NCBI GenBank assembly: GCA_026004415.1
Contig: BPJC01000003.1
Coordinates: 49,178 to 113,177 of the forward strand
From: Patescibacteria group bacterium
GTDB taxonomy: Bacteria > Patescibacteriota > Microgenomatia > UBA1406 > GWC2-37-13
Direction of reading: 5' to 3'
Length of the DNA: 64,000 nt
Within the stretch, counting starts at the first letter, position 1; each line of letters opens with the position of its first letter. A program made the translations under genes and the position numbers. Positions 8,822-57,200 of the stretch are shown here, in pieces. Under the pieces are notes generated by a model. It was not told the origin of the DNA. It worked only from the letters and a program-made list of their open reading frames with translations, and did no database searches.

Positions 8822-9653
8822 ATGTTTGATACGCATTGCCATCTTAACTTTAAAGCATTTGAGTCCCAGGTTGATGATATTATCAAAGAATCTAAAAACT
8901 ATGGGGTTTATTATTTTATGATACCAGGCACAGATTATGCAACAAGCAAAAGAGCGGTTGAGATATCTGAAAAGTATAAAAATGCATTTTGTTCTGTAGG
9001 TTTGCATCCGCATCATATATATGAGTTTGTTCAAAAAAACATAGATATAGATGATTATGATTTTATAGGTTTTATTAAGGTTTTAGTTGAGTCAGATTCT
9101 GTTAAGGCTATAGGTGAAGTTGGGTTTGACAGACATGTGTATACTAAGACAAAGTATCAGAATTATAAAGTTAATGAAGTTTTTTTGAGTTTACAAAAAA
9201 AGTTGTTTATTAAGCAGTATGATATGGCACTTAAATTAGACAAGAGTTTAATAATTCATTGCAGAGAGGCTGAATCTGATTTGTTGGCTGTACTTGGCGA
9301 TGTGTGGGATAGCAAGATGCAAGGTAGAGCAGTGTTTCATTGTTGTCCCTGCCAGCGGAGATTTGCTTAAGTTTGCTTTAGAGCAAAAAGTTTTTATTGG
9401 AGTTGATGGAGATGCAACCTATGATCCCAGAAAACAGGCTTTTATTAAAAAAGTTCCGTTAGACTTATTAGTTTTGGAGACAGACTCTCCTTTTTTAATG
9501 CCTGAACCTATAAGATCTGAAAGGAGATTTCCAAATACACCAGCAAATTTAAGGTATATTGCCGAGATATGCGCTTATCTAAAAGATTTAAGAGTAGATG
9601 AAATAGTAAGAATTACCACTGAAAATGCATTTAAATTATTTAGATTAAAATAA
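8822..9653 (+). pseudogene. tatD: TatD-family metal-dependent hydrolase/DNase, interrupted by a single frameshift
   Basis: ORF 8822..9370 starts MFDTHCHLNF and runs to AVFHCC. ORF 9294..9653, one frame over, continues PASGDLLKFALEQKVFIGVDGDATY...LVLETDSPFL. The switch is at ~9344-9350 (TGTCCCT). Confidence 0.75.
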
Positions 9654-9657
9654 AATT

Positions 9658-10164
9658 GCCTTTTAGTTCCTAACTTTCGATGCCGTTTTTTACTTATAGT
9701 TAGCCTTTTAGTTCCTAACTTTCGATGGATGTGGTTGCTATTCCTTGCCTTTTAGTTCCTAACTTTCGATGTATTTTTTTTCTTTTTTTGGCCTTTTAGT
9801 TCCTAACTTTCGATGGTGTGGTTGCTATTCCTTGCCTTTTAGTTCCTAACTTTCGATGTATTTTTTTTCTTTTTTTGGCCTTTTAGTTCCTAACTTTCGA
9901 TGTAAATTTGTCGTTTTTTTGCCTTTTAGTTCCTAACTTTCGATGGGCACAGGGACACTATTTGCCTTTTAGTTCCTAACTTTCGATGTCTTGCTGTCGT
10001 TTGATTGGCCTTTTAGTTCCTAACTTTCGATGAACAAGTCCAATAAAACTAGCCTTTTAGTTCCTAACTTTCGATGGGAGTTATTATTATGTTTCGCCTT
10101 TTAGTTCCTAACTTTCGATGAAAAGAAAGATTTTATCAAGCCTTTTAGTTCCTAACTTTCGATG
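9658..10164 (-). CRISPR. CRISPR array: 12 identical 25-nt repeats, 11 spacers of 18-20 nt
   Basis: Repeat on + strand is GCCTTTTAGTTCCTAACTTTCGATG, starting at 9658, 9703, 9747, 9791, 9834, 9878, 9921, 9964, 10008, 10052, 10096 and 10140. Minus-strand transcription is inferred: there is no leader room on the low side (tatD stop is 4 nt away), and a minus-strand promoter abuts the repeat at 10164. Confidence 0.97.
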
Positions 10165-10193
10165 AGTATAACAAATTTAGATTTTTGTGTCAA
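10165..10193 (-). promoter_or_regulatory. Candidate sigma70-type promoter driving the CRISPR array (minus strand)
   Basis: Minus strand reads TTGACA (10193-10188), a 17-nt spacer ending TGT, then TATACT (10170-10165), directly abutting the terminal repeat. The predicted start falls ~6-8 nt into that repeat. Confidence 0.55.
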
Positions 10194-10211
10194 GTTTTAC
10201 AAAATTTATAA

Positions 10212-10241
10212 TTGACATTTATCTATTAGAAATTCTATAAT
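10212..10241 (+). promoter_or_regulatory. Candidate sigma70-type promoter for cas1
   Basis: TTGACA (10212-10217), 18 nt, TATAAT (10236-10241), located 44 nt upstream of the cas1 GTG. Confidence 0.5.
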
Positions 10242-10284
10242 TTTAGATAGATTTTTAGTTTTCAATATTTATTTTTTTCAGTTA

Positions 10285-11316
10285 GTGAAAATATCAAAAT
10301 ATTTTATTTGGTTACCTTATTTGACCAAAATTAAGGTATATCCAAGTTCAGTTTATTTTGAGTTTAAGGGAGGAGATCTTAAAATTGAATGGTCTAGAAT
10401 TCACTCTATTATGATCTACGGTAGTTCTGTTGATCTTCCTCATGATTTTTTAGACAAATGTTCTTTTTACAAAATCCCGATAGTTTTGCATAGAAGAAAT
10501 GTTGTAAGAGCTGTTTTTATTGCTCCTTGTCTTTCTGGAGATTCTGAGGATATTTTAAGTAAACAGATTTGTTTTAGAGATAACTATAAAAAAAGAGCAT
10601 ATATTGCAAAAAGGTTGCTTTTGGCCAAATTCAAAAGTATGTCTTGGCTTGTGCCTTATCGAAAAGATTATTTATATGGTGTTTCTGATATTGATAAGAT
10701 GGTTTCTTTTGAGGCGCATCACTCTAGAAGGTATTGGAAAGAATATTTTGGTTTATTAGGCAGTAGTTCCAGCAGAAGAGATTCAGATTCAGATTATAAG
10801 AAGGTTTTAGATGCTATTTCTAAGTTTGTCTCTGGTGTTTTGTTAAGATGGGTTGTTTATCATAATTTGAGTCCTTATCATGGATTCATTCATAAGCCTA
10901 ATGACTATCCTTCTTTAGTTTATGATCTTATGGAACCATATAGAGGTTATTTTGATAGGGTAGCTTTTGGTGTCTTTAAAAAAGTTAGTGATGCTGGCAT
11001 TGATAAAAAAAGGTGCCTTGGCCTTGCGATAGAGGAGATAAAAGAGTTTTTAGATATTAAGGTTTATGTTTCTGCAACAAGGCAAGTTGTTAAGTTTAAA
11101 GAGTTGTTGCATGGTGTAGTTATTGCTTTAAGATCTTATCTGTTAGGCAATACAAGAAGGTTTGTTGTTCCTTTGCCCAGCAAGCCAAAAGGTGGAAGAC
11201 CTGTTAATGCAGGTTATAAGCTTTATGGAGGTAACGCTGGTATTACTAATTTTTGGCCTGATACTAAAGAGTTGGCCTATAATTTTGAAAAAATATTCTT
11301 TGTTTCAGATCTGTAG
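10285..11316 (+). CDS. cas1: CRISPR-associated endonuclease Cas1 (stand-alone; no cas2/cas4 partner)
   Basis: 343 aa; EAHHSRRYWKEYF and YHGFIHKPNDYPSLVYDLMEPYR match the Cas1 catalytic H / D-x-x-E-P-(F/Y)-R blocks. Adjacent to the array. GTG start. Confidence 0.9.
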   Translation: MKISKYFIWLPYLTKIKVYPSSVYFEFKGGDLKIEWSRIHSIMIYGSSVDLPHDFLDKCSFYKIPIVLHRRNVVRAVFIAPCLSGDSEDILSKQICFRDNYKKRAYIAKRLLLAKFKSMSWLVPYRKDYLYGVSDIDKMVSFEAHHSRRYWKEYFGLLGSSSSRRDSDSDYKKVLDAISKFVSGVLLRWVVYHNLSPYHGFIHKPNDYPSLVYDLMEPYRGYFDRVAFGVFKKVSDAGIDKKRCLGLAIEEIKEFLDIKVYVSATRQVVKFKELLHGVVIALRSYLLGNTRRFVVPLPSKPKGGRPVNAGYKLYGGNAGITNFWPDTKELAYNFEKIFFVSDL

Positions 11317-14300
11317 CCAACTTATATTTTTTATTGTTTTGTTTTTTAAGAATTCGATAGTTTCTTTGAATGTATCTTTTGATTCATCTTTAGTTTGATT
11401 TTGGTTTCTAAGAAGCATTGTATAACCTCTAACTGCCATAATAAAAGATGCTTGTTTGTCTGCGTCAGCTATGAAGTTGCAGTCTGAGTTTGGACAGATA
11501 AATAAAAAGCTGTTTCCTCTTTTGTTTTTTAAATCATATATTTTTTGTAGGTTATTGTTGTCTTTGTTTGTTTGGATCAGACTTGAACTGCTTTTGTTAA
11601 GAGGAGGTCTTGCAAAGTCCTTGACTATTTTTTGAAACTCTTTCAATGCATTTTTGTTATTGCCAATCTTTGGTATATTTTGGCTGTATGCTTTTAAGGT
11701 TTTGTTCCCTATTGTGATTTTTAGTAAATGTTTGTTTTCTGGGTTTGATTCTATTTTAATGTCTTTTAGGTCGTCTTTACTTATTTCATATAAACTAGTT
11801 TTACATTTGGCGCAGGTATAGCTTGAGGCATATGCGCTGACATGTTTGCCTGGGTATTTACTTCTTTTTCCCCAGATGTGTTCGTGAAGGTTATTGTTTT
11901 CTTGATATACGTCAGATTTTTTTACTGTATTATAGATTTTTGTTGTTCTGCCACTGCCAGTTTCAAAATTACTTATTGAGTATTCGTAGATAATATAGCT
12001 TGGTTTATATTTTAAAATAAGATTGTGAATTTTGTTTCTTAATGAACCAGCGGCATTTTCTCTTACTTGAGCAACTTTGTCACTTTTGTTTTTAAATAGT
12101 CCTTTTCTAGCTTGTTGTTGAATTAGTTGGAAGTTGTCTTTAATTTTGCCTATGTTGGGCTCTATTATAAAGTCTGATTCAAGAATTTCAACCTCTTGGT
12201 CGTTTACTTTAATTACTGAGTAAGCCAATCCATACTCTCCAACATCTATGCCTATTATGGGTCTGTTTAGAGATTCTGGCGCTTTTTGAATTTGTAATAA
12301 ACTTCTGTCGGGATTCTGTAATGGTTCTATATTAAAAGGTATGCTAATGTAAAGTCTGTTTTTATCTCTATTAGTTGGTGTGAATGTTGGTACTTTTTTA
12401 TTTAGATCCCAGATTATTTTGTATTCTTTCTCAAGTATCAAGCTCCACTCACCTAATTTAATTTTATGACTTTGCCAGCTTTTAGGTTTATATAGAAATC
12501 TATCTAAAAATTGGATTTGATAGTATGATGAGTTTATTTTTAATGCATTTGACAGTTGTTCTTCAGATATTTTGCTGTCTGTTATTTGGTTTTTTATGAG
12601 GTTGAGCGCTTTTGTTGATTTGTTTCCTGAATTTTTGGTAAATGTTATTACATAGTTATGCTTATTTGCAACTATGTCTTTTAGGTTTGGCTTGTCTTGG
12701 TTAAGGAGGTCGGAAATTAAAAATAGTTTGTATTTTTTGTCTATAGCTATAAATTGACAGGTGTATTTTGCTGTGTATAGTTCTTGGGTATAGATTGTTG
12801 CAAAGCCTTTTATTTCAGATAGAATAAGAGACTGGAGCAGGTAGTTGTACTCATTTTTGGTTATTTGCTGGCTTTTTATAAGTTTAAGATATGTGTTTGC
12901 TTTTGTGAATGAGTCTGGTATTTTTAGGTCGTTTTTATTGATTATTTCTATTTTTGAGAGCTTGATAAGTTTTGATATTAGATGTCTAGATAAGTCTAAA
13001 AAGTCAAGCAACTGTTCTTTGTTTTTTAATATTTCTGTTGGGTCCTGTTTTATTAAGGATAATAGTTCGTCTATTAGTTGTTTAAAGATTTTGTTTGGTT
13101 GACCGTTTATGTTTATTGTTTTTTGTGTGCCTTTGGCATATTCGCTTTTGTAAAAACAAATATGATTTAATCTATTATTTTTAATAATATCTTTAATCAC
13201 TGGTGCAGTTTTTATTAGTATTCTTGTATAACTTTCTTTGTAATACTGGCTGTTTACAGAGTTTGTTTTTAATTTATTTAATATAAAATTGAGTGTTTTT
13301 CTTAATTCTATTTCATCGTTGAGTTTTTCTATGTCAATTGAGTCAAAGATTAGTTTAAGGTGCTTTAATATAAATTCAGTTCCGGTTTCAATAGTTTCAA
13401 TGGTGTTTTTAAAGATTTTTTCATTGTTTTTTAGAATTACAGTACCGTAAAAACTTGCTGGTCTATATATATTGTTGAAGTATCTTTTTATAAGATGCTC
13501 TGATTCTTCGTTGTTGTCTGATATTTTTTGAAAGTAAAAGTTTGCTTTTTTCTTTAGTTCTGAAATTAGATTTTGAATAACTTCATTTTGTTCTGGGTGT
13601 TGAAGAGTATTCGGGTTGTTTTCTATTATTTCAAGTATTTGTTTCGCTTGTCTACTCACTTCTGTTTTTTGATCTGTTTGATCATCTTGATTGTTGTCTA
13701 TCTCTTTTATAAGTTCTTTAAGGTTGTTTTTGAATTGAGTTGTTTGTTCTATTATGTCTTTTTGTCTTTTTAACATATTACTTATCCAGCTTTTTATTTT
13801 GCCAAAGTTTATTCTATACTCAGACCAGCTATTTATTTCAGGCATAGTAGGTTTCTCTAATTTTTTTGATTGATTAGATAAGTACTCCAGCGCCTTTAGT
13901 ACTTGTTCTTGTTCTTCTTGTTGATATTTATAGATTTTGTTGATTGCTTCAAAGATTTCTGTTGTTCTGTTTTTTTGTAAACTAGTTAAAACTTTGCCGT
14001 AATAGTTTGCCATGCCATTAAAGTTGTCATCTGTTAGAACAATGCTGATTAGTACTTTTTCTATATCGTTAGTTTTTATGTTAATTTTTTCTTTTAACCA
14101 CAACTTTCTTATCTCAATTAGCTGTTCTATAGTTATGTCTTTTTCTTGGGTTATAAGTTCTGGGATTATAATAAATGTCAGTTTATCATATGGTTTGTCT
14201 GGTCTGAGATCATCTAATAATGATTTTTTAAGATCAAATTGTTGTTCCCAGAATTTTATTTGTTCTAAATTGTTCAGCTTAAGTTTTCCTTTTTCGTTAA

Positions 14301-14877
14301 AAAAGGATTCTACTATGAATTCTATAATTTCATTAGCTTGTGGTTGAATAGTTTTGTTTTTTTCATCAGTTATTTGATCTTTTTTTAGTATTTTTAAAAG
14401 CCTATTTTTGAATGATTTTTTAGTTGTTGTTGGTCTCACAGATTCAGACATTAGAATTTCATTAAATATTCCTTCATATGTAAATGTTTGTAGTAATTTA
14501 GAAGATGATTTAGTTATTATTTTTTCAATCAGAGAGTTTTCTTTTAGTATATATTGTTGTGTAAATCCGATAATGGCATTGCCTGATGATTGCCAGATAA
14601 CACCTGCTTTTAAAGAGTCTATCCAGAAGTCAATTATTGTATAAAAATTATGGTTATTGTTATAGTATTGGTAATAGTCATTTAAATTTACGCAACCTCG
14701 GATTTTTAAATCGTCTTTTACAATCGCTGTGGATATTTTTTCTATAAGTTCTTGATTGGTTAAGTTCTTTGAGTATGTTTCAAGTGGATATTTTATGCTT
14801 CTTATAACTGGTTTTTGAGATAATTGTAGTCTTTTCTGATGTAGTTTATAACCTGTGTTTATAAACTTCCTGCTCAC
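11305..14877 (-). CDS. cas12d: Type V single-effector nuclease, Cas12d/CasY-like (1190 aa)
   Basis: - RuvC-I: PIIGIDVGEYGLAY (D878, nt 12244-12246).
- RuvC-II: YIIYEYSISNFE (E965, nt 11983-11985).
- RuvC-III: ADADKQASFIMA (D1140, nt 11458-11460).
- Cys4 insertion: CAKC (1022/1025) ... CPNSDC (1128/1133).
- No HNH. The first ~870 aa have no motif I recognise.
- N-terminal GYKLHQKRLQ...SIKYPL and C-terminal RGNSFLFICP...ADADKQAS resemble CasY proteins as I remember them.
- GTG start immediately after an in-frame TAA. Confidence 0.9.
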   Translation of the reverse strand: MSRKFINTGYKLHQKRLQLSQKPVIRSIKYPLETYSKNLTNQELIEKISTAIVKDDLKIRGCVNLNDYYQYYNNNHNFYTIIDFWIDSLKAGVIWQSSGNAIIGFTQQYILKENSLIEKIITKSSSKLLQTFTYEGIFNEILMSESVRPTTTKKSFKNRLLKILKKDQITDEKNKTIQPQANEIIEFIVESFFNEKGKLKLNNLEQIKFWEQQFDLKKSLLDDLRPDKPYDKLTFIIIPELITQEKDITIEQLIEIRKLWLKEKINIKTNDIEKVLISIVLTDDNFNGMANYYGKVLTSLQKNRTTEIFEAINKIYKYQQEEQEQVLKALEYLSNQSKKLEKPTMPEINSWSEYRINFGKIKSWISNMLKRQKDIIEQTTQFKNNLKELIKEIDNNQDDQTDQKTEVSRQAKQILEIIENNPNTLQHPEQNEVIQNLISELKKKANFYFQKISDNNEESEHLIKRYFNNIYRPASFYGTVILKNNEKIFKNTIETIETGTEFILKHLKLIFDSIDIEKLNDEIELRKTLNFILNKLKTNSVNSQYYKESYTRILIKTAPVIKDIIKNNRLNHICFYKSEYAKGTQKTININGQPNKIFKQLIDELLSLIKQDPTEILKNKEQLLDFLDLSRHLISKLIKLSKIEIINKNDLKIPDSFTKANTYLKLIKSQQITKNEYNYLLQSLILSEIKGFATIYTQELYTAKYTCQFIAIDKKYKLFLISDLLNQDKPNLKDIVANKHNYVITFTKNSGNKSTKALNLIKNQITDSKISEEQLSNALKINSSYYQIQFLDRFLYKPKSWQSHKIKLGEWSLILEKEYKIIWDLNKKVPTFTPTNRDKNRLYISIPFNIEPLQNPDRSLLQIQKAPESLNRPIIGIDVGEYGLAYSVIKVNDQEVEILESDFIIEPNIGKIKDNFQLIQQQARKGLFKNKSDKVAQVRENAAGSLRNKIHNLILKYKPSYIIYEYSISNFETGSGRTTKIYNTVKKSDVYQENNNLHEHIWGKRSKYPGKHVSAYASSYTCAKCKTSLYEISKDDLKDIKIESNPENKHLLKITIGNKTLKAYSQNIPKIGNNKNALKEFQKIVKDFARPPLNKSSSSLIQTNKDNNNLQKIYDLKNKRGNSFLFICPNSDCNFIADADKQASFIMAVRGYTMLLRNQNQTKDESKDTFKETIEFLKNKTIKNISWLQI

Positions 14878-14897
14878 TTAATTAAAAAAATTTTTGT

Positions 14898-14971
14898 GAG
14901 CCTTTGCAGTAAAAGGCAACGATTTACAAAAATGTAAATCGGGAAACCGCAAAGGCTCTGAGTTAGGAACT
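14898..14971 (-). ncRNA. Candidate scoutRNA/tracr-like RNA with repeat-complementary segments
   Basis: - Perfect 10-bp long-range stem: GAGCCTTTGC (14898-14907) / GCAAAGGCTC (14949-14958).
- Inner 8-bp hairpin: GATTTACA-AAAA-TGTAAATC (14921-14940).
- AGTTAGGAACT (14961-14971) is the exact reverse complement of repeat positions 8-18.
- TAAAAGGC (14910-14917) is the reverse complement of repeat positions 1-8.
- Minus strand chosen because of the promoter at 14980-15007 and a downstream U-tract. Strand is not proven. Confidence 0.6.
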
Positions 14972-14979
14972 CAATTAAT

Positions 14980-15007
14980 TTTATATCATATTATTTTAAA
15001 TTGTCAA
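14980..15007 (-). promoter_or_regulatory. Candidate promoter for the anti-repeat RNA / cas12d transcript
   Basis: Minus strand reads TTGACA (15007-15002), a 16-nt spacer ending TGA, then TATAAA (14985-14980). The predicted start is ~14971-14974, at the first anti-repeat segment. Confidence 0.5.
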
Positions 15008-15030
15008 TATTGTATAATGTATACAGGTGT

Positions 15031-22127: not shown

Positions 22128-22198
22128 CTGCCGGGCTAGGATTCGAACCTAGACTAAACGGTCCAGAGCCGTTTGTGCTACCTTTACACCACCCGGCA
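22128..22198 (-). tRNA. tRNA-Gln (anticodon CUG)
   Basis: Hand-folded cloverleaf. Acceptor UGCCGGG/CCCGGCA with U1:A72, anticodon stem AACGG/CCGTT, loop CTCTGGA, T-arm CTAGG-TTCGAAT-CCTAG. No encoded CCA. Confidence 0.85.
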
Positions 22199-22367
22199 TA
22201 TTTTAGATGATAGTTTCTAAAATAAATCTTTTAAGATTTTCATTATAGCATATACTGTTTATATTTATATAATAAGAATATGAGATGTTTTTTTAAATAT
22301 AAATCTTTGAATTATATATTTCTAAGAAATTATGTTTTCTTATTTTAAAGAAATCAAGAAATAAGAT

Positions 22368-23984
22368 TTATCTATAACAGCTATATCTTGGATCATTGCT
22401 GATTATATCTTTCAACTTAAGTTCATCTGCTTTTTTTAAATCTAGTTCTTTTGGTTTTGGTAATAAAACTCGTTTTTGTACTATAGTTTCACCAAATTTT
22501 TTCTCCTCTATTAATTTTGATCTATGGTCTTCTAAAAACAGCGTTGCTTTAATTGCATAGTCTGGTATGCCTACCTCTGGTTCTAATATTAGAAACTTTA
22601 GTTCTGGTCTTTTGGTATCATAGGGTAAGTAAGATGTGTTGAGGTGTTGGTCTGGTCCAGACCAAAAGGGTAAATAGCCATATCTTTTTTCTCCATAAAA
22701 CTTGTATAAAAACGACCAAGTTGTGTTAATAAACAAAGGATTTGTTACAGCACAGATTGAAAATTCTTTATTATTTGCTTCTTTATATGTATAATCAATT
22801 AGATCTTTTTCATCTTTAAGGGTTATTCTTTGAACCTCTATCACTTTGATATTCTTAAATTCATCATTTTTTATATTTATAAAATTGCTGATCAATATAA
22901 ATATAATCAATGCATATCCTAGAAGTTTGTTTATTTGTATTATAAAGTAAATACCGCCAGCGATAGTTAAAGTCAATACAGGATATATAGGATTATTTAT
23001 AAAATCAAAAGAAACTATTCCTGTTTTGAACATAAATAGTGGAAATGTAGAGAAGAGCCAGAGAATTATAAGTTTATATCTATTTTTATCATTAATTGAT
23101 TTATAGCAAAGTATAAGAAGTATCAAGAAAAAGGCTAGCGCGAGTTTTGGATTTATAAAAAAGAAAGAATTAACTATCGCATTTTCTAATTTGCCTAAAT
23201 AATTAATTACAAAGCTATAAAATTGATTATTTAAATGATTTGATCCACTTGTTAAATAGTTTAATAAAGATTTTATTCCTATAAAGTTCCATTTAATCTC
23301 TGCAATAATAAAATTGCTTGTTAATATAAGAAATAGAAACAATGATTTTTTTAAATCTGATAAATATTTATTTTTATCAAGTTTGAACAAAATATAAATT
23401 AAGGGATAAAATATAATAAGGTATACAAGCATAAAATTAAAGTTTATAGATAAAACTAAACCTAATACGCTAATAAATAGATATTTTGTTTTTTGTTTAT
23501 TAAATAAATAGTATATGAGCCCCAAGAAGAAGATTGTTGCACCTAAAGACATTGGTGCAGCATTTGAAATGAATCTAGCATAATTAAGTTGCGCAAATGA
23601 TATTGACCATAAAAATGATGTTAGTAATGCCGGAAAATCTTTTCTAAAAATAAGCTTTGCAATTAAGTACAATGGTATAATAACAGTCATATTTAACAGA
23701 ACAAATAAAAAAACAGTTATATTAGGGTCAAATTTCGACAAAAAATAAAAGGGTAGTGTCAAATAATAATGTAATGGACCATGGTGTATTCCTATAATAT
23801 CAGTTTCGGGTCCTACTATCTTAATATCTTTATTAGTTATGATTTCAAATACTCTTTGTGCGTCTCTAGCCTGATCATAACTAAAAAAGAAGTTGTCTTT
23901 TAAATTATATAACCTAATTAGCAACCCTAAAAAAAATATTGCTATTAAAAACATTTTGCTTTTTTTGGTAGCAAAGATCCTCAT
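22368..23984 (-). CDS. GT-C fold membrane glycosyltransferase paralog (ArnT/PMT-like)
   Basis: 538 aa, >10 predicted TM segments. The first periplasmic loop has the motif FFSYDQARDAQRVFEI, shared with its neighbours. Confidence 0.6.
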   Translation of the reverse strand: MRIFATKKSKMFLIAIFFLGLLIRLYNLKDNFFFSYDQARDAQRVFEIITNKDIKIVGPETDIIGIHHGPLHYYLTLPFYFLSKFDPNITVFLFVLLNMTVIIPLYLIAKLIFRKDFPALLTSFLWSISFAQLNYARFISNAAPMSLGATIFFLGLIYYLFNKQKTKYLFISVLGLVLSINFNFMLVYLIIFYPLIYILFKLDKNKYLSDLKKSLFLFLILTSNFIIAEIKWNFIGIKSLLNYLTSGSNHLNNQFYSFVINYLGKLENAIVNSFFFINPKLALAFFLILLILCYKSINDKNRYKLIILWLFSTFPLFMFKTGIVSFDFINNPIYPVLTLTIAGGIYFIIQINKLLGYALIIFILISNFINIKNDEFKNIKVIEVQRITLKDEKDLIDYTYKEANNKEFSICAVTNPLFINTTWSFLYKFYGEKRYGYLPFWSGPDQHLNTSYLPYDTKRPELKFLILEPEVGIPDYAIKATLFLEDHRSKLIEEKKFGETIVQKRVLLPKPKELDLKKADELKLKDIISNDPRYSCYR

Positions 23985-23987
23985 AAT

Positions 23988-25481
23988 TTAGTTTTTATTT
24001 TCTATAAACTCAATTGTAACTCCATATTGGTATTCTTTGTTAATTACTTTAGAATTTTTAGGAATATTGTTTTGTCGCCATTCAGTTATTCTGAATTCAT
24101 ATCCTTTAGCCTCGTCTTCAATAATAAAATAACAAGTATTGTTAACAAAGTTTGATTTGGGTTCTGGAGTGTTTAGTTTACGACTGTAATATTTGAATAG
24201 ATAATCCCAAGTATAAGGTATTACTGGTGGAGTATAGATTTTAACACAGAATTCTTTACCTTTGTTTTCATTATATATTTTATTTACAATTGTATCTTGA
24301 ACAAAGAAACCTTGTGGTTTAGATGGATTTTTAATTACATTATAAGATGAAATAAGTCCTGTCGTAAGTATTAATATTAAGCCTGTTTTTATTATTATAT
24401 AACCTGTTTTAGTCTTGGTTTTGCCGATTATATTAATTGCCAATATTATGGAGATAATAAAAAAAAGTTGTATACCTTCATAATAATTAGCCCAGAAGTT
24501 GTCTCTGTAAAAGACAGATAAGGCAAAAAGTAAAAATATTATTAAGTTATTTGCGTAAAATATCTTTGTTTCTATATTCTTGCTTTTTTTTCTTAGTGTT
24601 ATTATAAAGGCACTGGTTATGATCGTTAAAAAAAATATGCTTGTTATAGAATTTAGAAAATCAGGAAATATTGATGTGTAGTAATTTGAAAACTGTGTTA
24701 TTCTTTCTATTGCTGAGTCTAATAATGGCCGTGGATTATGTAACTTTGGATTGATGATAAAATTGATAAATGTTTTCGTCTGAATAAAATTGTTTTTAAT
24801 TTCAAAAGCCAATCTTAAAGATAGTGGAATTATAAGTCCTAATGCTGATAAAATTAGATTCTTTTTATTTAAGAAAACATCTTTTAATCTACCAAACAAA
24901 ATTAGCATTATAATTGTTGCGGGTAGTAAGAAAATTCCAAAAGCAAACTCTGCTTCCCAGACGAATCCAACCGACAAAAAGATAAGAAAATAGAACTTTG
25001 ATTTGTTGGTTGCAAAGAGATTATAAATACTATAGACAAATAATAATATAAAAGGGAATGTTAAAACGCTATTTATAACGAATGTGCTCATAGATATGAA
25101 GTATGGCGAAAAAGCAATGAACGACAAAAAAATTATTGATTCGACTGAACTAAAATTTTTATTTAAAAAATAAAAGAATAACAAAAAAGATAATAACTGT
25201 GATAAAAATAACCAATATGGGAAAGCGATAGGGTTTCCATTAGTTAAAATATAGGGGATTGCTAAAAAATAATACCACCAAGCTCCATGATAAACTCCAG
25301 GAAGGCCTGTTGTGGGACCTATGAATGTTGGGTTTTTATACCTTACCACCTCTTCCACTTTTAAGAAGTCTCGTCCTTGATCATAAGTATAGGGAAAGGT
25401 TTTCTCTTTTATTGTTTTGATTCTGATAATTGAAAATAAAACAATTAAAAAAATTAAGATAATGTGTATTTTTTTAATCAT
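23988..25481 (-). CDS. GT-C fold membrane glycosyltransferase paralog (ArnT/PMT-like)
   Basis: 497 aa, polytopic. Motif PYTYDQGRDFLKVEEV in the same position as the neighbouring paralogs. Confidence 0.6.
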   Translation of the reverse strand: MIKKIHIILIFLIVLFSIIRIKTIKEKTFPYTYDQGRDFLKVEEVVRYKNPTFIGPTTGLPGVYHGAWWYYFLAIPYILTNGNPIAFPYWLFLSQLLSFLLFFYFLNKNFSSVESIIFLSFIAFSPYFISMSTFVINSVLTFPFILLFVYSIYNLFATNKSKFYFLIFLSVGFVWEAEFAFGIFLLPATIIMLILFGRLKDVFLNKKNLILSALGLIIPLSLRLAFEIKNNFIQTKTFINFIINPKLHNPRPLLDSAIERITQFSNYYTSIFPDFLNSITSIFFLTIITSAFIITLRKKSKNIETKIFYANNLIIFLLFALSVFYRDNFWANYYEGIQLFFIISIILAINIIGKTKTKTGYIIIKTGLILILTTGLISSYNVIKNPSKPQGFFVQDTIVNKIYNENKGKEFCVKIYTPPVIPYTWDYLFKYYSRKLNTPEPKSNFVNNTCYFIIEDEAKGYEFRITEWRQNNIPKNSKVINKEYQYGVTIEFIENKN

Positions 25482-25501
25482 ACTTTAATTTTAACTTATT
25501 G

Positions 25502-27073
25502 TTATCTATAATGTATCCAATCGTTTATATTAGGATCAGTTGGAATTTCTAAATCTTTCTTATCTAACTTGTATTTTTCTATTGTATATCCAACCGGGGG
25601 AATTTGTTTTTTCCAAATAGGTTCTTTGGTCAGATTTACCTTAGATTCTTTCCATGAAGAATAGTTTAGCCATGGTTTGTCTGAAGGAGGCGGCGCAATG
25701 ATTAGGTAGGTAACTGGTCTTTTTTCATATATAAAGACCTTTGTGTTTGGGTATCTTTTTATATAGTAATTCATGCTTGCCTTTGTTTGATAAGCTAAAA
25801 TGTCTGGAGAAAATATAAAAAAACCAAATTCTCTGTCGTTTTGTTCAAAAACTGTTTGGGCTATTTTGCTTTGATATGTCCAGCTGTTTTCATCTTGTCC
25901 TATTGAGTTTTTTAGATTTTTCCACTCTTGAATATTATGTATTGTCCAGGTAAAGATTATTATTGATGTTAATATTATGTATATCCTTTTTAATTTTTTT
26001 TCTACTAATGTTGTTCCAACTGATAAAAGAAAAATAGGTAGCGACATAGTGGGAAGGAAGTAATGGTATAAGAGCCAGCCTTTGTGTAATATGGAAAAGA
26101 AGTAAAAAGTAATATAAAAATAAAAAGTTAATAGAAAAACTTGTTCTTGTGTTTTTAGTTTGTTTTTGTTTTTTAATTTTAAAATTAAAATTATTGCAGT
26201 CAATAAAAACAGAATCAAAATGATAAAATTCAAATAGTAACTATTAAAAAAATCAATTCCTTCATTGCTCATAATATTTAATCTGTTTAAGATAACGGTC
26301 TGCGTATCTAAAGGTATTGCATTTGTTGTTCCTTTGATATAAGTTAGCAGAGATTTGCTAAGTTGGAAATTATGTCTTAAGTCGAACAAAAGATATGTTA
26401 TTGTAGTCAATGGAATTGCTAAAAGACTTTTTAAATGAGAAAAAGATCTGTTTTTTATTATTTTAAATATGATTATAAATAAACTTGAAATTAGAAAAGG
26501 ACCAGCAGTAGCAATTTGCAGATGAATCATTAATCCTAGAATAATTAAAGATATAAATAAAAATTTTTCTTTATTTGTCTCTAAATAGTAATATAAAACT
26601 AGTATAAATGGTATAGTTAAAAATAAGGCTCCGTAGGGGTTGTAAAGTCCATTTAAATGTAACGCAAAGATAGTTAAAAATAAAGTTATAAATAAAAGAG
26701 CTGAATATTTTTGTTTAATTATTTTCCCAATTAGATTTTTTGTTATAAAGAGAATAGAAATTGTCATTATTATCCATCCCCACCCGATAATTATTGGGTT
26801 TCCTTTTCCTATAATATAAAAAGGTATATTTAGGTAAAGCCATAATGGTCCATGAAAAAAACCATCTAATCCGCTTGCTCGTGGACCTATAAGAACAATC
26901 TTTTTTTTGACAATTTCATCAAAGAGTAGAAAATCTCTTGCAATATCAGTATGAAATTTTATTTCTCCGATAAATAAAGGGCTAATTGCTATTATCAGGT
27001 TAATTAAAAAAATTATTCGCAGTAATGTTGTTATCTTTGTCTTTTTTATAAAATTATGAATAGAAGTTGTCAT
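25502..27073 (-). CDS. GT-C fold membrane glycosyltransferase paralog (ArnT/PMT-like)
   Basis: 523 aa, polytopic. N-terminal loop HTDIARDFLLFDEIV and overall architecture as in the two upstream paralogs. Confidence 0.55.
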   Translation of the reverse strand: MTTSIHNFIKKTKITTLLRIIFLINLIIAISPLFIGEIKFHTDIARDFLLFDEIVKKKIVLIGPRASGLDGFFHGPLWLYLNIPFYIIGKGNPIIIGWGWIIMTISILFITKNLIGKIIKQKYSALLFITLFLTIFALHLNGLYNPYGALFLTIPFILVLYYYLETNKEKFLFISLIILGLMIHLQIATAGPFLISSLFIIIFKIIKNRSFSHLKSLLAIPLTTITYLLFDLRHNFQLSKSLLTYIKGTTNAIPLDTQTVILNRLNIMSNEGIDFFNSYYLNFIILILFLLTAIILILKLKNKNKLKTQEQVFLLTFYFYITFYFFSILHKGWLLYHYFLPTMSLPIFLLSVGTTLVEKKLKRIYIILTSIIIFTWTIHNIQEWKNLKNSIGQDENSWTYQSKIAQTVFEQNDREFGFFIFSPDILAYQTKASMNYYIKRYPNTKVFIYEKRPVTYLIIAPPPSDKPWLNYSSWKESKVNLTKEPIWKKQIPPVGYTIEKYKLDKKDLEIPTDPNINDWIHYR

Positions 27074-27103
27074 TTTAATTTATTTTTTTGGTTAAAAATA
27101 ATG

Positions 27104-27176
27104 TGAATCGCCGGGGAGTCGAACCCCGAACCTACCGGTTAAGAGCCGGTTGCTCTGCCAATTGAGCTAGCGATCC
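27104..27176 (-). tRNA. tRNA-Lys (anticodon CUU)
   Basis: Cloverleaf: GGATCGC acceptor, GCTC-AATTGGCA-GAGC D-arm, ACCGG-CTCTTAA-CCGGT anticodon arm, CGGGG-TTCGACT-CCCCG T-arm. Confidence 0.9.
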
Positions 27177-27266
27177 AATAATTACAAAGTATAGTATATC
27201 AAAATATTAGGTTTAATGAGTTGTTTTTGCTTGTTTTATTTATGTGTTTTAAGATTTGAGAGAATG

Positions 27267-27338
27267 AGCGGCGGACCGGATTCGAACCGGCGACCTTCTC
27301 CTTGGCAAGGAGACATTCTACCACTGAACTACCGCCGC
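27267..27338 (-). tRNA. tRNA-Gly (anticodon GCC)
   Basis: Cloverleaf: GCGGCGG acceptor, TCTCC-TTGCCAA-GGAGA anticodon arm, GCCGG-TTCGAAT-CCGGT T-arm. Confidence 0.9.
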
Positions 27339-27392
27339 TTAAATTAAAAAAATTTTACCACTATTTTAAAAAATTGCAAAATAAGCAAATTC

Positions 27393-28571
27393 TTATTCCT
27401 CCTTTTCTTTTCCAATGATATTTTTCATATATATTAGCAAAACCATGTAAACAAAAGGAAAATATAATATTAGGTATCTTGGATAGATTGGTATCTTTAT
27501 TAAATATAGCATATATAACCAAATCCAGATAAGAAATAAAAACATAAACCTGGTTTGTTTATTAAAAACTTTTCTTTTTAACTTTATGGCTTTATTTAAA
27601 TAAATTATTGTTAAAAGAATCATAGATATAATTGAGAATGGATAAATTAAGTTCCAGTATTCAAAGTTTATATATCCTTTGTTATCCCACCAGATTTTCC
27701 ATTTATTAAACAACAATAAAGGCAAAACATTACCTTTGGCTTCTATGTAATTTAAATGATTATACCTCCAGAAGTTAAAGATCCATTTTTGGGCTTTAAT
27801 AAATTCTGTAATAGTTGTTCCTTGAGTAAATGATGGTATGTAAGTTAATAAAAAAGCTAAAGTAAAAGACAAGCTAGATATAAGTATAAAGAATATTATT
27901 TTTGAAAGTTTAAGTTTAGATAGCAACATATGAATTAACAATGTTATAGCAACTATGACTACTATTAAATAAAACTTTACTGTTGCTAAGAATCCAAGTG
28001 ATAATCCTGTTAATATATTAAACATAATTTGTTGTTTATTTACCCATTTTATATAAAAATAGAAAGTTAGTAATAAAAACAATAGTTGGTATATATCTAA
28101 CAAAGTTGGTTCTTTTAAAAACATTTTTATAGTGCTGTCGTTGGTAAATAAGAAAAAACCGATTGAACTTAACAAAAAAGAATTTGTCACCTGTTTTAGT
28201 ATTAGATAGAATAAAATAGCTGTTAAAACTACAGATATTAATCCAGAAATATTTTCATTTTTAAATAACAAGATTGAGACACCAATAAAATATTTGCCTA
28301 GAGTCATATGTTCAGCATTGAGTAGAATAGGGTTTGTTCCTGTAAGGTATTTATACCCAGCATATGCATATAATTGGCCATCTGATATTCCTTTTTTTGA
28401 GTTGGGTATTACATATTGTGATTGATTAAACTCTTGTTCTGCTAAATCAGGATCAAACTTTTTAATATAGATTTCTTTATTATTGTATATTTGAACTACC
28501 AGGCTAATAAAACCTAATAAAATCATTAAAATGCTTATATATTTGGTTAATTGTTTGTTTTTTATATACAT
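27393..28571 (-). CDS. GT39/PMT-like membrane glycosyltransferase
   Basis: 392 aa, polytopic. The loop NAEHMTLGKYFIG resembles the HPPLGK motif of protein-O-mannosyltransferase-type GT-C enzymes. Confidence 0.55.
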   Translation of the reverse strand: MYIKNKQLTKYISILMILLGFISLVVQIYNNKEIYIKKFDPDLAEQEFNQSQYVIPNSKKGISDGQLYAYAGYKYLTGTNPILLNAEHMTLGKYFIGVSILLFKNENISGLISVVLTAILFYLILKQVTNSFLLSSIGFFLFTNDSTIKMFLKEPTLLDIYQLLFLLLTFYFYIKWVNKQQIMFNILTGLSLGFLATVKFYLIVVIVAITLLIHMLLSKLKLSKIIFFILISSLSFTLAFLLTYIPSFTQGTTITEFIKAQKWIFNFWRYNHLNYIEAKGNVLPLLLFNKWKIWWDNKGYINFEYWNLIYPFSIISMILLTIIYLNKAIKLKRKVFNKQTRFMFLFLIWIWLYMLYLIKIPIYPRYLILYFPFVYMVLLIYMKNIIGKEKEE

Positions 28572-28640
28572 TAATGTAGTTTTTATATTTTAGAACAATT
28601 TAATAGATTTAACAAATTTTTGTTAATTGTAGGTTTGGTG

Positions 28641-28723
28641 TGCCGGGGAGAGGACTTGAACCTCCACTCCCAAAGGGAACAGCCTCCTCAAGACTGCGCG
28701 TCTACCAATTCCGCCACCCCGGC
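28641..28723 (-). tRNA. tRNA-Leu (anticodon GAG)
   Basis: Class II tRNA with a long variable arm: GCCGGGG acceptor, CAGTC-TTGAGGA-GGCTG anticodon arm, TTCAAGT T-loop. Confidence 0.9.
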
Positions 28724-28780
28724 ATTAACTATTTAAAAAAAAGATTATTAATCAATATGATTAAATATACTATACTTTTG

Positions 28781-28853
28781 TGAGCCCGCAGGGACTCGAA
28801 CCCTGAACCAACGGCTTAAAAGGCCGTTGCTCTGCCAGTTGAGCTACGGGCCC
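28781..28853 (-). tRNA. tRNA-Lys (anticodon UUU)
   Basis: Cloverleaf: GGGCCCG acceptor, ACGGC-CTTTTAA-GCCGT anticodon arm, CAGGG-TTCGAGT-CCCTG T-arm. Confidence 0.9.
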
Positions 28854-52574: not shown

Positions 52575-54209
52575 TTATTTGGGTAATTTTCTAGATCCCA
52601 GTAATAGCTTACTGGTTTTAATTTTTTTTATTAAATCTATTGAGTTTTCAATAGGAGTTATATTTTTTTTCCATCTTTTATCAGAAGGTAAATAACTTCC
52701 AGTTGTGTAAACATTTCCTGTGAAATAACCAGCATAGCAGGTGTAACCTGAAGGGCAGGTGCTATTTACAGATCCTACAATTCCGGCGGCATAGTTCGAT
52801 AAATCATTTTGGTAGCCTATGCCACCGGCAGTAAGCCAGTTATTTCCTGCAGAGTTTAATAAGGTTCCATGAATTGCAACTCTGTAATTAGAACTAGTAC
52901 TTGTTCCTAATTCTTTAGCTATTGCTTCTATGGTGTGGTAACTTCCTGATGAAACAGATGGATCATAAGCATAAATCGATGTAAGTGCGTTATTTGTAGT
53001 ATAAGGAAGGTTTGTTGTTGATGATTTAGCTACATGTAAAATACTATCTGGGTTTGTAAGACCTATTCCAACATTTCCTCCACTTGGGTTGATTATAAAT
53101 TTGGTAGGAGAGTTAGAACTATTATACGCTTGTAGGCCGGTTACACTTGAAACATTTCCAAACAATATATAATCTCCGCTTCCAATAGTTGATCTTATTG
53201 AACCTTGTACATCAAGTTTATACTGCGGATTCGTCGTCCCGATGCCGACATTGCCAGTGTCAACAGTAATTGAACCATCTCTAAAAGATATTTGAGGATC
53301 TGTTGTGCCAGTGTTGTAAGTCCAGGTGAAGACAGAGCCGGAACCCCAAGTTACAGAGGCAAGTTCAGTTGGATCAAAGGCAACAGTTGGAGACCATCCT
53401 TCACCTGCAGTTCCTGTAACATCAATATAATTTCCCGCAGTGATTCCAGCAACATAATTGCCGGTAGTTTCTGATCCTAAGGCAATACAATTTGTACATG
53501 TTATTCCTCCATCTGCATTTATATCTCCTGAGAAATAAGCCGTACCTGCAACATATAGTTTATATGATCCCGGACTCGTCGTTCCGATGCCGACATTGCC
53601 AGTGTCAACAGTAATTGAACCATCTCTAAAAGATATTTGAGGATCTGTTGTGCCAGTGTTGTAAGTCCAGGTGAAGACAGAGCCGGAACCCCAAGTTACA
53701 GAGGCAAGTTCAGTTGGATCAAAGGCAACAGTTGGAGACCATCCTTCACCTGCAGTTCCTGTAACATCAATATAATTTCCCGCAGTGATTCCAGCAACAT
53801 AATTGCCGGTAGTTTCTGATCCTAAGGCAATACAATTTGTACATGTTATTCCTCCATCTGCATTTATATCTCCTGAGAAATAAGCCGTACCTGCAACATA
53901 TAGTTTATATGATCCCGGACTCGTCGTCCCGATGCCGACATTGCCAGTGTCAACAGTAATTGAACCATCTCTAAAAGATATTTGAGGATCTGTTGTGCCA
54001 GTGTTGTAAGTCCAGGTGAAGACAGAGCCGGAACCCCAAGTTACAGAGGCAAGTTCAGTTGGATCAAAGGCAACAGTTGGAGACCATCCTTCACCTGCAG
54101 TTCCTGTAACATCAATATAATTTCCCGCAGTGATTCCAGCAACATAATTGCCGGTAGTTTCTGATCCTAAGGCAATACAATTTGTACATGTTATTCCTCC
54201 ATCTGCATG
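52575..54209 (-). pseudogene. Middle fragment of the giant surface-fibre gene (contains the 3 x 115-aa repeats; no start codon of its own until TTG 53165)
   Basis: The minus-strand frame is open from 54209 to 52575. It encodes three identical 115-aa units (...GNVGIGTTSPGSYKLYVAGTAYFSGDINADGGITCTNC...), then ...GNVGIGTTNPQYKLDVQG..., and ends PSDKRWKKNITPIENSIDLIKK, the start of the S74 domain. The track only reports 52575..53165. Confidence 0.7.
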
Positions 54210-54256
54210 TTATATCTCCTGAGAATATAAGCCGTACCTGCAACATATAGTTTATA
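53222..54256 (-). repeat. Three head-to-tail 345-bp (115-codon) near-perfect tandem repeats inside the giant gene
   Basis: Positions p and p+345 are identical over ~53240-53911 except one mismatch (53238 C vs 53583 T). This is reflected by three identical antisense ORFs at 53292, 53637 and 53982. The top copy carries two extra bases (G 54209 and T 54226). Confidence 0.95.
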
Positions 54257-57200
54257 TGATCCCGGACTCGTCGTCCCGATGCCGACGTTGCCTGTCGCAA
54301 AATAACTATTTCCTCCTGAACCATCTAACCAAATATTGGTAATAATTGAAGGATAGGAACCAAGCGTGACCGTCATTGGTCCTATTCCTATCGCTTTGTT
54401 TACTCTTAAATTGGCGTCATCCCCTGAAGTTTGTAAAAACATTGTTGGTACGGTATTTCCAGTTGCGGTATTGGTATGAATCCAGGCCGGGCCATAGCCC
54501 GTTCCATCATCAGTATAATGAAGGTAAGTTTCAAATGGATAAGTTCCAGATTTAATAATTCCACCATAACCGGTCATACCTATTCCACCAATCCAGATGT
54601 TACCTGCTACTGATAATTTTTCACTAGGATTCGTCGTTCCGATGCCGACGTTGCCCGCTACTGTTAAACCTGCCCAGGGTGACTGTGTTCCGTAGTTGTA
54701 TCCTACACTTAGCGCTCCTGTATATACTTGTGCACCAGAGCTGCCGTAACCAAATCCTATTGCTGTTCCAGAATCATATTCTCTAAGCCAAATATTATTA
54801 ATCCTTATATCTCCTCCTTGAACATCCAACTTCGCCCCCGGATTCGTCGTCCCGATGCCGACGTTGCCTGTTGTTTGTGCAAGTATTGCTCCGCCAGAGA
54901 TTCTTAGAGAGTATCCGTTCATACCAGTACCTGCAGGATCTAATCCAAAGTTTTGGTCAGATTTGTCTAAGAATTTTTCTGCTATTACTGAATTGTTTAC
55001 AGTCAATGACTCTGTGGTTAAATTGGTTGAATATAAAGATCCATTAACATATAGTTTATAAGAACCCGGATTCGTCGTCCCGATGCCGACATTGCCCGAA
55101 GCTGTTATTCTCATGACTTCATTACCTGTATCCGCTCTATTACCATTCCAAGTAACACCAGATCTAAATGTTAGTGGTACATTTCCTCCGACTCCTTCCC
55201 AGCTAATAATAGCTCTTCTTTCTCCTGTAGTATCAGAAACGTCCAAACCTATTGTAGCATCGCCAGTATTACCAACAATTGCAGAAACGACTTGTCCATC
55301 ACCTTGAACCTGTAATTTTTGAGCAGGCCCCGTAGTCCCGATGCCGACGTTTTCTGATTTTATTACCATCTCCGGATCAGACACTCCATCCCCCTGGTTA
55401 AAAACCAGAGGATTTCCTGCACCAAGCCCTTGATCATCCATCCCTATTGTCCAACGGACTGAACTTCCATCTCTAAATTTTATTACTGGATCAGACAAAC
55501 CCGCACCATTCATAAGTATATTCCCGTTGTATACTGTAAGCTTTTCTCCTGGACCCGCCGTCCCAATTCCCACATAACCTGTTGCCCCTTCAATAAACAT
55601 TCGGGTACTAAAACTAAATGTATTTCCACTAGTTAATCCTGTATTTGCCCTAAATTGTATATTTCCATTTGCAAGGAATACTGCAGAGGCTGCATCACTC
55701 CTTGCTGTAAATGACCCCATGTCATGGGTTGCTCCTGCAGTAATGTGCCCCCAGTCAGCATCTGAAGTATATCCGCCTCCTCCTAAAAACAAACCACCTG
55801 AGGTTGTGCCTCCCATGGTGCTTGTTTGCAGGTATAACCCTCCGCCTTGACCATGTTGGACTAGTGCAGCCTCGTTAAGTCCTGTTTTAATATGAAGTCT
55901 CGCCCCTGGACTCGTTGTTCCGATGCCTACATTGCCGGAGGTGTCTATTCTGACAGCTTCAGTCCAATTATCAGTCATAAATCTTAATTGCCCTCCAGTT
56001 TCATCAGAACCGAGACTTAACAGATTTGAATTAGTGTCATAAACTACGTTGGCTACCTGGGTTCCATTTTCTGCCATACTAAATGCAGCTTGATATCCAG
56101 TTGTAGTGTCTGCTTGGATATAAGAGTGAGCTGTTGAATCATATTTAATGCCTATAGTTGATGATCCGGCTATATGCAATTTGTACACTGGACTTGTCGT
56201 TCCGATGCCGACATTGCCATTCATAATTTCAATATCTCCGTCTGTTTGAATTTTTAATCCTTCTACCCAAGTAATATTTGTGTCAGCTGTGCCTGATACT
56301 GCATATCTAAGGCTTATGTCTCCTGTAGATGGCATCGCAATATTTTGTGCTGTTCCAGTATTAGTGTATTTCCAGTTTGATCCATCCCAATAAGCGTTTC
56401 TAGTAAAGAAAGATCCGTTTGCCGCTTGAAGCAAATGAGTTAAGTTCTCAATTTGTAATTTAGATTTTGGATTAGTTGTTCCTATACCAACATTGCCACT
56501 GGCATCTATGACAAATGGAGTTGTGTCTGAGTCTCCTGTTTCATCGTTAACTCTAAAAGAAAATCCTGATCCTAAATTGGTAATCATTAAAGGAACTGCG
56601 CTAGAGTTACTGTTTGTTGCTAGTTTTAAAAGATTTCCTGTTCCTCCTGATGTTGTGGGTGAGTGGTTTATTTCTAAAATTGAGCCAGAAAGTCCTGATG
56701 AGGTAGAGGAGAGGTAAAGAGATCTGCCTGATGTTAGAGAGTTAGCGTTTATAGTAAAAAAATTCTGAGTGCTTGCAGATGTGTTAAAGGTCGTGGTATA
56801 GGTGGAGTGATTGAGTGTTAGGTTGTCTGTTGGGTCAAGCAAGTCGTCCCAGTATAGCGAGTTTGCAGTTATGTTAGTAGTCCAAGATAAAATTCCTGTT
56901 GCATCTGTTTTAAGGTATCCGTTAGCATTTATTGAAGTAGGTAGGGTGTAGGTAATATCCGCTGTTTGGGTTCCAGTTACAAAAGTTGTTGAGTATGCAT
57001 TGTCTCCGGCGCTGATTAAATCGATTTTGCCTGCAGTGTTGTTTGTGCCTGTTGAGGCATCTAATCCTACAGTTATGCCAGAAGAACCTGATATGTGAAG
57101 ATGCGTTGCTGGAGCTGTAGTGCCGATGCCAACATTTCCTGATGTGTCTATTATTACTTGAGGTGTAGTAGCCGCATTTGTTCCAAGACCTAAATACCTT

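Follow-up and report, generated by a model that had tools for sequence, protein, structure and literature searches.

The question raised by positions 9658-15007 of the 64,000-nucleotide (nt) stretch of contig BPJC01000003.1 of a Patescibacteria group bacterium (hereafter termed the window) is whether this locus encodes a complete CRISPR-Cas system and to which type that system belongs. An earlier note on this DNA, made from its letters alone, had described a compact type V-D locus comprising an array, cas1 as the only adaptation gene, an effector of 1190 amino acids (aa), and an anti-repeat RNA. We found all of these parts in the places assigned to them, and the reading direction of the array and the RNA had to be corrected to the minus strand. 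Altogether, we regard the locus as a complete, intact-looking type V-D CRISPR-Cas12d (CasY) system that resides on the chromosome of a Patescibacteria (candidate phyla radiation, CPR) host and is accompanied by a short-complementarity untranslated RNA (scoutRNA), with a probability of roughly 0.88. As the Cas12d family, the Cas1-only layout, the short spacers, and the scoutRNA have all been published before, the locus adds a member and not a new type of system.

The open reading frame (ORF) of the effector converges on cas1 with an overlap of 12 nt. Its product matched the NCBIfam Cas12d/CasY equivalog NF033951 with an E-value of 0 and a score of 1098 bits (cut-off of 250 bits), in which residues 8-1153 were aligned to positions 2-1178 of the 1180 in the profile, and the Cas12d models of PADLOC with an E-value of 1.5e-122. 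The best profile match was what the earlier note had anticipated. In an alignment of 12 homologs, D878 (GIDVGEYG), E965 (YEYSISNFETGSG), and D1140 (ADADxQAA) were invariant, as were C1022, C1025, C1128, C1133, and many N-terminal residues, and the proposed split RuvC with a Cys4 insertion was thereby retained. In the same alignment, the terminal motifs quoted in the earlier note were likewise invariant (G9, Y10, H13, R16, I28, and K29 on one side and R1120, G1121, S1123, F1126, C1128, P1129, D1138, D1140, Q1142, and A1143 on the other). Neither HNH nor any other nuclease family was detected in the effector by Pfam, and the protein shares the domain composition of type V-D effectors, namely a single C-terminal split RuvC with a Zn-ribbon insertion and no HNH. 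Judging from the intact RuvC residues, the window Cas12d is predicted to be catalytically active. In a preprint on KbCas12d (CasY.1), replacing a RuvC Asp or Glu by Ala (D827A and E913A in the numbering of that protein) abolishes cleavage. The identical protein is deposited in NCBI as "hypothetical protein KatS3mg090_0608" of a Patescibacteria metagenome-assembled genome. The nearest relative, KatS3mg091_256, is 50% identical to the window effector, and the next ten, some of which are annotated as Cas12d, are 34-39% identical.

There was no Pfam model for the effector, which explains why its first ~870 aa had looked unrecognizable in the earlier note. That description no longer holds, as residues 8-1153 are accounted for by the Cas12d profile and Cas12c resembles the predicted fold from end to end. 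The AlphaFold (AF2) model built from the 12-sequence alignment had a predicted local distance difference test score (pLDDT) of 79.6 and a predicted template modeling score (pTM) of 0.67, and its best matches in PDB, Cas12c2 (7v94; E-value of 7.6e-23) and Cas12c1 (7vyx; TMq of 0.56), extended over essentially the whole length, followed by Cas12a. Because the AF2 model matches Cas12c along the whole length, the N-terminal two thirds of the effector are taken to be a normal recognition lobe of the kind present in Cas12c/d. The phmmer searches against PDB found nothing for either the effector or Cas1, and Cas12c was reached only when a profile was used. No Cas12d structure was found by sequence search in the PDB copy used here, and any well-behaved ortholog would thus have some structural value.

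The intergenic region upstream of cas12d (14878-15030) is strongly structured, with a minimum free energy of -34.2 kcal/mol and a z-score of -8.8 against shuffled controls, and holds both of the repeat-complementary segments that the earlier note had proposed (14961-14971 and 14911-14917). By its sequence features, the "anti-repeat RNA" of that note is a scoutRNA, the class of RNA that type V-C and V-D systems require according to secondary sources. We compared it with a set of 43 further Cas12d loci retrieved from genomes and metagenomes (designated by L-numbers). An nhmmer profile of the window element detected its counterparts directly upstream of cas12d and on the same strand in 32 loci. 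When 12 short-form copies were aligned and subjected to RNAalifold, a 5-bp hairpin at the 5' end, a 13-bp closing stem, and a 7-bp inner hairpin were recovered, with compensatory double changes in 15 of the 25 pairs. The predicted structure was paired in 96.6% of the cells of this alignment, compared with 31-50% when the partners were slid, and none of 500 shuffles reached the covariation score. The covariance model found one strong match in the 64 kb (14898-14972, minus strand; 83 bits) and one match in each related locus, among them 11 of the longer form, which had no part in the training alignment. This model of the window-branch scoutRNAs did not reach those of the CasY.1 type, and the kinship of the two is suggested by their shared motif architecture rather than by a statistical match. 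No Rfam family was found for the RNA or the repeat at the gathering and E-value thresholds.

The scoutRNAs of the related set fall into two size classes, a short form of 70-76 nt with one inner hairpin, to which that of the window belongs, and a long form of 94-100 nt with two extra hairpins after GCCUU (L003, L004, L007, L008, L009, L017-L019, L027, L028, and L048). The anti-repeat, the closing stem, UUUCC, and GCCUU are common to both classes.

Between them, the two anti-repeats of the scoutRNA span the last 18 nt of the repeat. GCCUUUU (14917-14911) complements repeat positions -7 to -1, and AGUUCCUAACU (14971-14961) complements positions -18 to -8, giving 7 and 11 nt, respectively. GCCUU was invariant in the 12 aligned scoutRNAs and is complementary to AAGGC, with which all repeats in the related set end. 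The locus is thus predicted to possess what typifies type V-D, a scoutRNA with a GCCUU-type complement to the repeat 3' end. Wherever an array and a scoutRNA occur in the same locus (16 loci), a scoutRNA-repeat duplex of 10-12 bp is possible. Furthermore, the two partners change in concert: repeats with ...GGAACC occur with scoutRNAs that start with GGGUUCC, and repeats with ...GGAACU with those that start with GAGUUCC. In L026 (repeat, GGUUAGUAACC; scoutRNA, GGGUUACUAACCC), a G>U/C>A double change falls in what would be the hairpin loop, and the scoutRNA-repeat differences in L023 and L028 are G-U wobbles only.

Twelve repeats separated by very short spacers were confirmed in the array, with the correction that the repeat is 25 nt long and not 26 nt. 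On the plus strand, the repeat GCCTTTTAGTTCCTAACTTTCGATG is present in 12 identical copies (starts at 9658, 9703, ... 10140) with a period of 43-45 nt, and it reads CATCGAAAGTTAGGAACTAAAAGGC in the sense of the CRISPR RNA (crRNA). The array and the scoutRNA are placed on the minus strand because the minus-strand repeat (AAAAGGC at its end) has AAAGGC beside the spacer, as does the validated crRNA of CasY.1, because the scoutRNA core agrees with that of CasY.1, and, for the array, because the position of its promoter is conserved. Thus oriented, the array, the scoutRNA, and cas12d are all on the minus strand and cas1 is on the plus strand, and the gene order in the window branch is scoutRNA and cas12d, the convergent cas1, and then the array on the strand of cas12d. 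The leader-proximal repeat is that at 10140-10164. All arrays in the related Cas12d loci (29 loci) have a 25-nt repeat and a period of 43-44 nt. The window array, adjacent to the cas genes, has the repeat length (about 25-26 nt) and the short spacers of type V-D, the literature geometry of which is repeats of about 25-26 nt and spacers of 17-19 nt. The earlier attribution of the Cas1-only layout and the short spacers to the logic of type V-D agrees with the literature.

Toward the leader-distal end, an 86-nt block (9730-9815) that covers two spacers recurs exactly 87 nt downstream (9817-9902). Because of this duplication, spacer 9 has the same sequence as spacer 7, and a single base distinguishes spacer 10 from spacer 8. 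Several spacers are low-complexity A/T runs. No spacer matched the window outside the array with up to three mismatches, low-complexity A-runs excepted. Six spacers were scanned against 2.9 million viral contigs. The 17-nt core of the duplicated spacer had 12 matches there, which is about the chance number estimated by assuming ~1e11 bases. In one viral contig group (L053, L055, L057, and L059), 18 of the 19 nt matched and TA flanked the match on its 5' side, which we rejected as a chance protospacer since no other spacer from the 29 arrays matched these contigs. As no protospacer was found for the window spacers, the protospacer-adjacent motif (PAM) considered here, 5'-TA/TG, was borrowed from CasY relatives (PMC6509639). 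A literature search with the repeat-core 9-mer returned only unrelated primer sequences.

Two spacer matches between loci of the related set were recorded, against an estimate of ~0.15 by chance. A spacer of L035 (10254-10272) matches positions 626-644 of L008, a conserved stretch of cas12d coding for YTLFDFW, with one mismatch and a 5'-TA flank, and the cas12d of L035 itself differs from that spacer at no fewer than 5 positions. The second match, from L030 to L039, is without a T-purine flank.

With regard to adaptation, cas1 stood as the only gene, as had been claimed. PADLOC on 58 window ORFs gave cas matches only to Cas12d, Cas12c-like, and Cas1 models among the 25 listed of the 40 matched families, and Pfam detected neither Cas2 nor Cas4 in 20 small or medium ORFs of the window. 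The presence of cas1 without cas2 or cas4 in the searched ORFs of the 64 kb is as expected for type V-D. Both V-C and V-D systems are described as lacking cas2, and the Cas1 of V-C integrates spacers alone in vitro. The candidate metal-binding residues E143, H203, D214, and E217 were conserved in 30 Cas1 proteins from Cas12d loci, which are 47-70% identical to the window Cas1. In addition, the Cas1 proteins of Cas12d loci share a C-terminal tail (residues ~250-343) beyond the Pfam Cas1 match (residues 16-233), with P296, P298, P301, G303, G304, R305, G310, L313, Y314, G315, A318, and G319 being conserved. This tail might be linked to the ability to work without Cas2.

The scoutRNA, the array, and cas1 are each preceded by one of the three strongest sigma-70-like matches in the locus. 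Most of 23 distinct related loci have a -10-like hexamer whose end lies 5-7 nt upstream of the G with which the scoutRNA begins. The -10 box of the array promoter abuts repeat 1, which would place the transcription start about 5-9 nt inside that repeat and would still spare the 18 nt used for pairing with the scoutRNA. The TATACT-CATCG junction at this site was also found in L001, L003, and L004. The positions of all features are given in the table below.

Table. Positions of the CRISPR-Cas12d components in the window; promoters are predictions.
Feature	Position	Strand	Description
CRISPR array	9658..10164	-	12 x 25-nt repeat, 11 spacers of 18-20 nt
Array promoter/leader	10165..10193	-	TTGACA-17-TG-TATACT; 11/12 match, extended -10 TG; predicted
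cas1 promoter	10212..10241	+	TTGACA-18-TATAAT, 12/12; divergent from array promoter; predicted from consensus match
cas1	10285..11316	+	343 aa; Pfam Cas_Cas1 6.8e-18; sole adaptation gene
cas12d (casY)	11305..14877	-	1190 aa; RuvC D878, E965, D1140; Zn-ribbon C1022, C1025, C1128, C1133
scoutRNA gene	14896..14972	-	about 75-77 nt
scoutRNA, 5' anti-repeat AGUUCCUAACU	14971-14961	-	within the first 13 nt of the RNA
scoutRNA, 13-bp closing stem	5' strand 14958-14946; 3' strand 14910-14898	-	
scoutRNA, UUUC(C)	14946-14942	-	first U closes the stem
scoutRNA, inner hairpin	14941-14920	-	
scoutRNA, unpaired UUGCCUUUU with GCCUU	14917-14911	-	anti-repeat 2 = GCCUUUU
scoutRNA promoter	14978..15007	-	TTGACA-18-TAAAAT; -10 box stops 5 nt short of the RNA's first G; predicted

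The earlier note had named a chimeric assembly as a finding that would overturn its reading, and this was not borne out. In the Logan assembly of the run DRR290133, the segment from the glycosyltransferase gene through cas12d to cas1 was recovered with 0 mismatches over 5573 nt. In the KatS3mg091 sister genome (L001), the same site is occupied by RecJ, a small ORF, the glycosyltransferase GT2, the scoutRNA, cas12d, cas1, the array, TatD, GT1, and TrmD in this order. Identity between the two genomes amounts to 66-87% for the flanking proteins, with the small ORF beside RecJ at 57%, to 70% for Cas1, and to 51% for Cas12d (11305-14877 in the window and 4001-7543 in L001). The G+C content of the locus (29-31%) is like that of its surroundings. 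From the identical independent assembly, the synteny with the sister genome, and the G+C content, we conclude that the locus is chromosomal, vertically kept, and not chimeric. The two genomes have the same repeat, and their scoutRNAs are almost the same. By this comparison, the effector evolves much faster than its RNA partners and neighbors.

Taken together, the parts suggest how the system would operate. Of the three promoters, one would serve the scoutRNA and probably, through read-through, cas12d, and the other two would serve the array on the same strand and cas1 on the opposite strand. The scoutRNA of ~75 nt would fold into a long closing stem around the inner hairpin and the unpaired GCCUUUU loop, which would pair with AAAAGGC, the 7 nt of each repeat that adjoin the spacer. 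The 5' end of the scoutRNA, AGUUCCUAACU, would pair with the preceding 11 nt, and the final 18 nt of the repeat would thereby be held in a clamp by the two segments. Cas12d would bind this two-RNA scaffold and, guided by the 18-20-nt spacer, find double-stranded DNA beside a short 5' T-purine motif, which would be cut by the single RuvC site D878/E965/D1140. Cas1 alone, without Cas2 and Cas4, would insert the unusually short new spacers at the array end near cas1. By analogy with published relatives, the window locus is expected to depend on its scoutRNA, to recognize such a PAM, to cleave DNA, and to integrate spacers with Cas1 only.

Several observations weigh against a type V-D system that works in this manner. 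None of the six scanned spacers had an exact match in the 2.9 million viral contigs (0 hits for five of them), and the two duplicates among 11 spacers, together with the low-complexity A/T spacers, are signs of limited spacer turnover. The 11-nt 5' anti-repeat is a near-palindrome that could fold on itself as a hairpin, and the minimal scoutRNA of CasY.1 works without a long 5' anti-repeat (KbCas12d preprint). Promoter-like sites were not enriched overall (22 found versus 23.5 expected in shuffles), and it is thus their positions and conservation across loci that carry weight for the three promoters.

Some of these points could be read as those of a decaying or silent type V-D remnant that no longer confers immunity. 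No tested spacer has a protospacer, the old end of the array carries the duplicated block, and a frameshift divides the neighboring TatD gene, from which it follows that local decay or sequence error does occur here. Nevertheless, both cas ORFs are intact and of full length against the profiles, all catalytic and Zn-binding residues are kept, the 12 repeats do not differ from one another, the scoutRNA retains its structure and reaches 83 bits, and the promoters are near consensus. Moreover, the whole module is maintained at the same chromosomal site in the sister genome, where the housekeeping genes are 66-87% identical. We thus consider decay improbable and favor the intact type V-D system.

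We give still less credence to an active system with a mainly non-defense role, such as gene regulation or the control of DNA taken up from relatives. Such a role was suggested for self-targeting CasY loci in Roizmanbacteria, from which self-targeting arrays have been reported (PMC6509639); the L035 spacer that matches the L008 cas12d with one mismatch and a 5'-TA flank, as well as the ComEC-type competence protein encoded in the window, would fit it. On the other hand, no spacer of the array matches the window with up to three mismatches apart from the low-complexity A-runs, and the intact RuvC site favors cleavage over mere binding. A placement of the effector in a different Cas12 subtype (V-C/Cas12c) or among the transposon TnpB/IscB-type nucleases, with a different locus logic, is hardly credible, although the earlier note had held either to be decisive against its reading: Cas12c did give secondary profile matches (6e-16 in NCBIfam and 2.1e-31 in PADLOC) and the nearest solved structures, and V-C systems likewise are Cas1-only with a scoutRNA, but the Cas12c model NF033950 scored 57.3 bits against a cut-off of 250 over the stretch 739-995 only, compared with 1098 bits for Cas12d, the closest named homologs are annotated as Cas12d, the repeat and the scoutRNA core match those of CasY.1, and, as for TnpB/IscB, there was no family match in the Pfam, NCBIfam, and PADLOC output and there were no transposon ends, while the array and cas1 are present in a locus lying between housekeeping genes.

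The gene beyond the scoutRNA encodes a family-2 glycosyltransferase, the start of which is probably ATG at 15031 rather than TTG at 15001, judging from a 312-aa ortholog. On the other side, beside the array, a TatD-family gene (8822-9653) is broken up, and its two ORFs (8822-9370 and 9294-9653) overlap and match positions 1-154 and 161-253 of Pfam TatD_DNase, respectively; its ortholog in the sister genome (L001, 9262-10092) is a single intact gene of 276 aa. The split gene is either a frameshift pseudogene or the product of a sequencing or assembly error. Elsewhere in the window, a cluster at 52575-60533 contains an ORF of 1685 aa (54191-59248) in a stretch with a G+C content of 38-44% (about 32% elsewhere), a 196-aa ORF with a weak match to the endosialidase chaperone (Peptidase_S74), and a 168-aa ORF with only the N-terminal SAM-like domain of phage integrase. 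The cluster may be a remnant of a prophage or mobile element. Five tRNA genes are located on the minus strand at 22128-28853, four of which are clustered at 27104-28853.

The locus provides a divergent Cas12d ortholog with its non-coding parts (scoutRNA, promoters, and array orientation) mapped, and its 5.3-kb fragment is ready for interference or editing assays. It also extends the examples of Cas1-only immune systems that persist at one chromosomal position in the reduced genomes of CPR.

Among the known systems, the window locus resembles KbCas12d/CasY.1 of Katanobacteria in the full-length profile match, the C-terminal split RuvC with a Zn ribbon, the CPR host, Cas1 as the sole adaptation protein, and a 25-nt repeat that ends with AAAGGC beside a short spacer (18-19 nt in CasY.1). 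The two also share a scoutRNA core of the order stem, UUUCC, hairpin, GCCUU, and stem, transcribed in the direction of the array. In the KbCas12d preprint, the minimal scoutRNA active in vitro is AAAGGG-UUUCC-hairpin-AGCCUUCC-CCCUUU (supplementary table) and the crRNA consists of a 25-nt repeat ending with AUAAAGGC followed by an 18-nt spacer; the core of the window scoutRNA reads GAGCCUUUGCGG-UUUCC-hairpin-UUGCCUUUU-A-CUGCAAAGGCUC. The repeats of the window branch are of the form CATCGAAAGTTAGGAAC(T/C)AAAAGGC, and the locus scan retrieved a distant branch with CasY.1-like repeats (CxCCGAAA...GGGGAUAAAGGC), the effectors of which are 26-33% identical to that of the window. The CasY.1-like loci differ from the window locus (scoutRNA and cas12d, cas1, and array) in being arranged as cas1, array, scoutRNA, and cas12d. 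Furthermore, the CasY.1-type repeats contain a covarying internal hairpin (CUCCG/CGGGG, CCCC/GGGG, or CUCCG/CGGAG), in contrast to the window repeat, which has none, and the window scoutRNA bears the extra 11-nt anti-repeat at its 5' end that the minimal CasY.1 scoutRNA lacks, which is a minor variation. We infer that the window branch may supply in trans, by the 5' 11-nt duplex, the helix that the CasY.1-type repeats form in cis. A further and rather doubtful step, which we offer tentatively, would be to regard the window-branch scoutRNA as a bipartite clamp on 18 contiguous nucleotides of the repeat (11 + 7), in the manner of a tracrRNA (trans-activating crRNA), and the difference between the branches as a cis-to-trans swap within one Cas12 subtype that links scoutRNAs and tracrRNAs. 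The extended anti-repeat, backed by covariation, yields a concrete design rule for single-guide RNAs in the window branch and suggests a relation between the two classes of RNA.

The CasY systems of Roizmanbacteria and Microgenomates from hot springs comprise CasY, Cas1, and an array, and their 5'-TA/TG PAMs were inferred from phage matches (Chen et al., 2019; PMC6509639). Compared by description, these systems are likewise of CPR genomes, and several of the related loci in this study are from genomes of the Microgenomates group. The window locus differs from them in that its CasY is unfragmented, self-targeting is absent within the window, and the PAM is not derived from protospacers.

Finally, Cas12c of type V-C (7v93, 7v94, and 7vyx) represents the nearest solved fold with a full-length structural alignment. 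Cas12c differs from the window Cas12d in the identity in this alignment (12-15%), in the 57 bits that the latter scored against the Cas12c model, and in the sequences of the repeat and the RNA. Nevertheless, the V-C loci are also Cas1-only, and their guide scaffold resembles that predicted here in having several separate anti-repeats whose pairing with the repeat takes in the nucleotides directly 5' of the guide. In the crystal structure of Cas12c1, three segments of the tracrRNA pair with repeat positions -18 to -11, -10 to -7, and -4 to -1.

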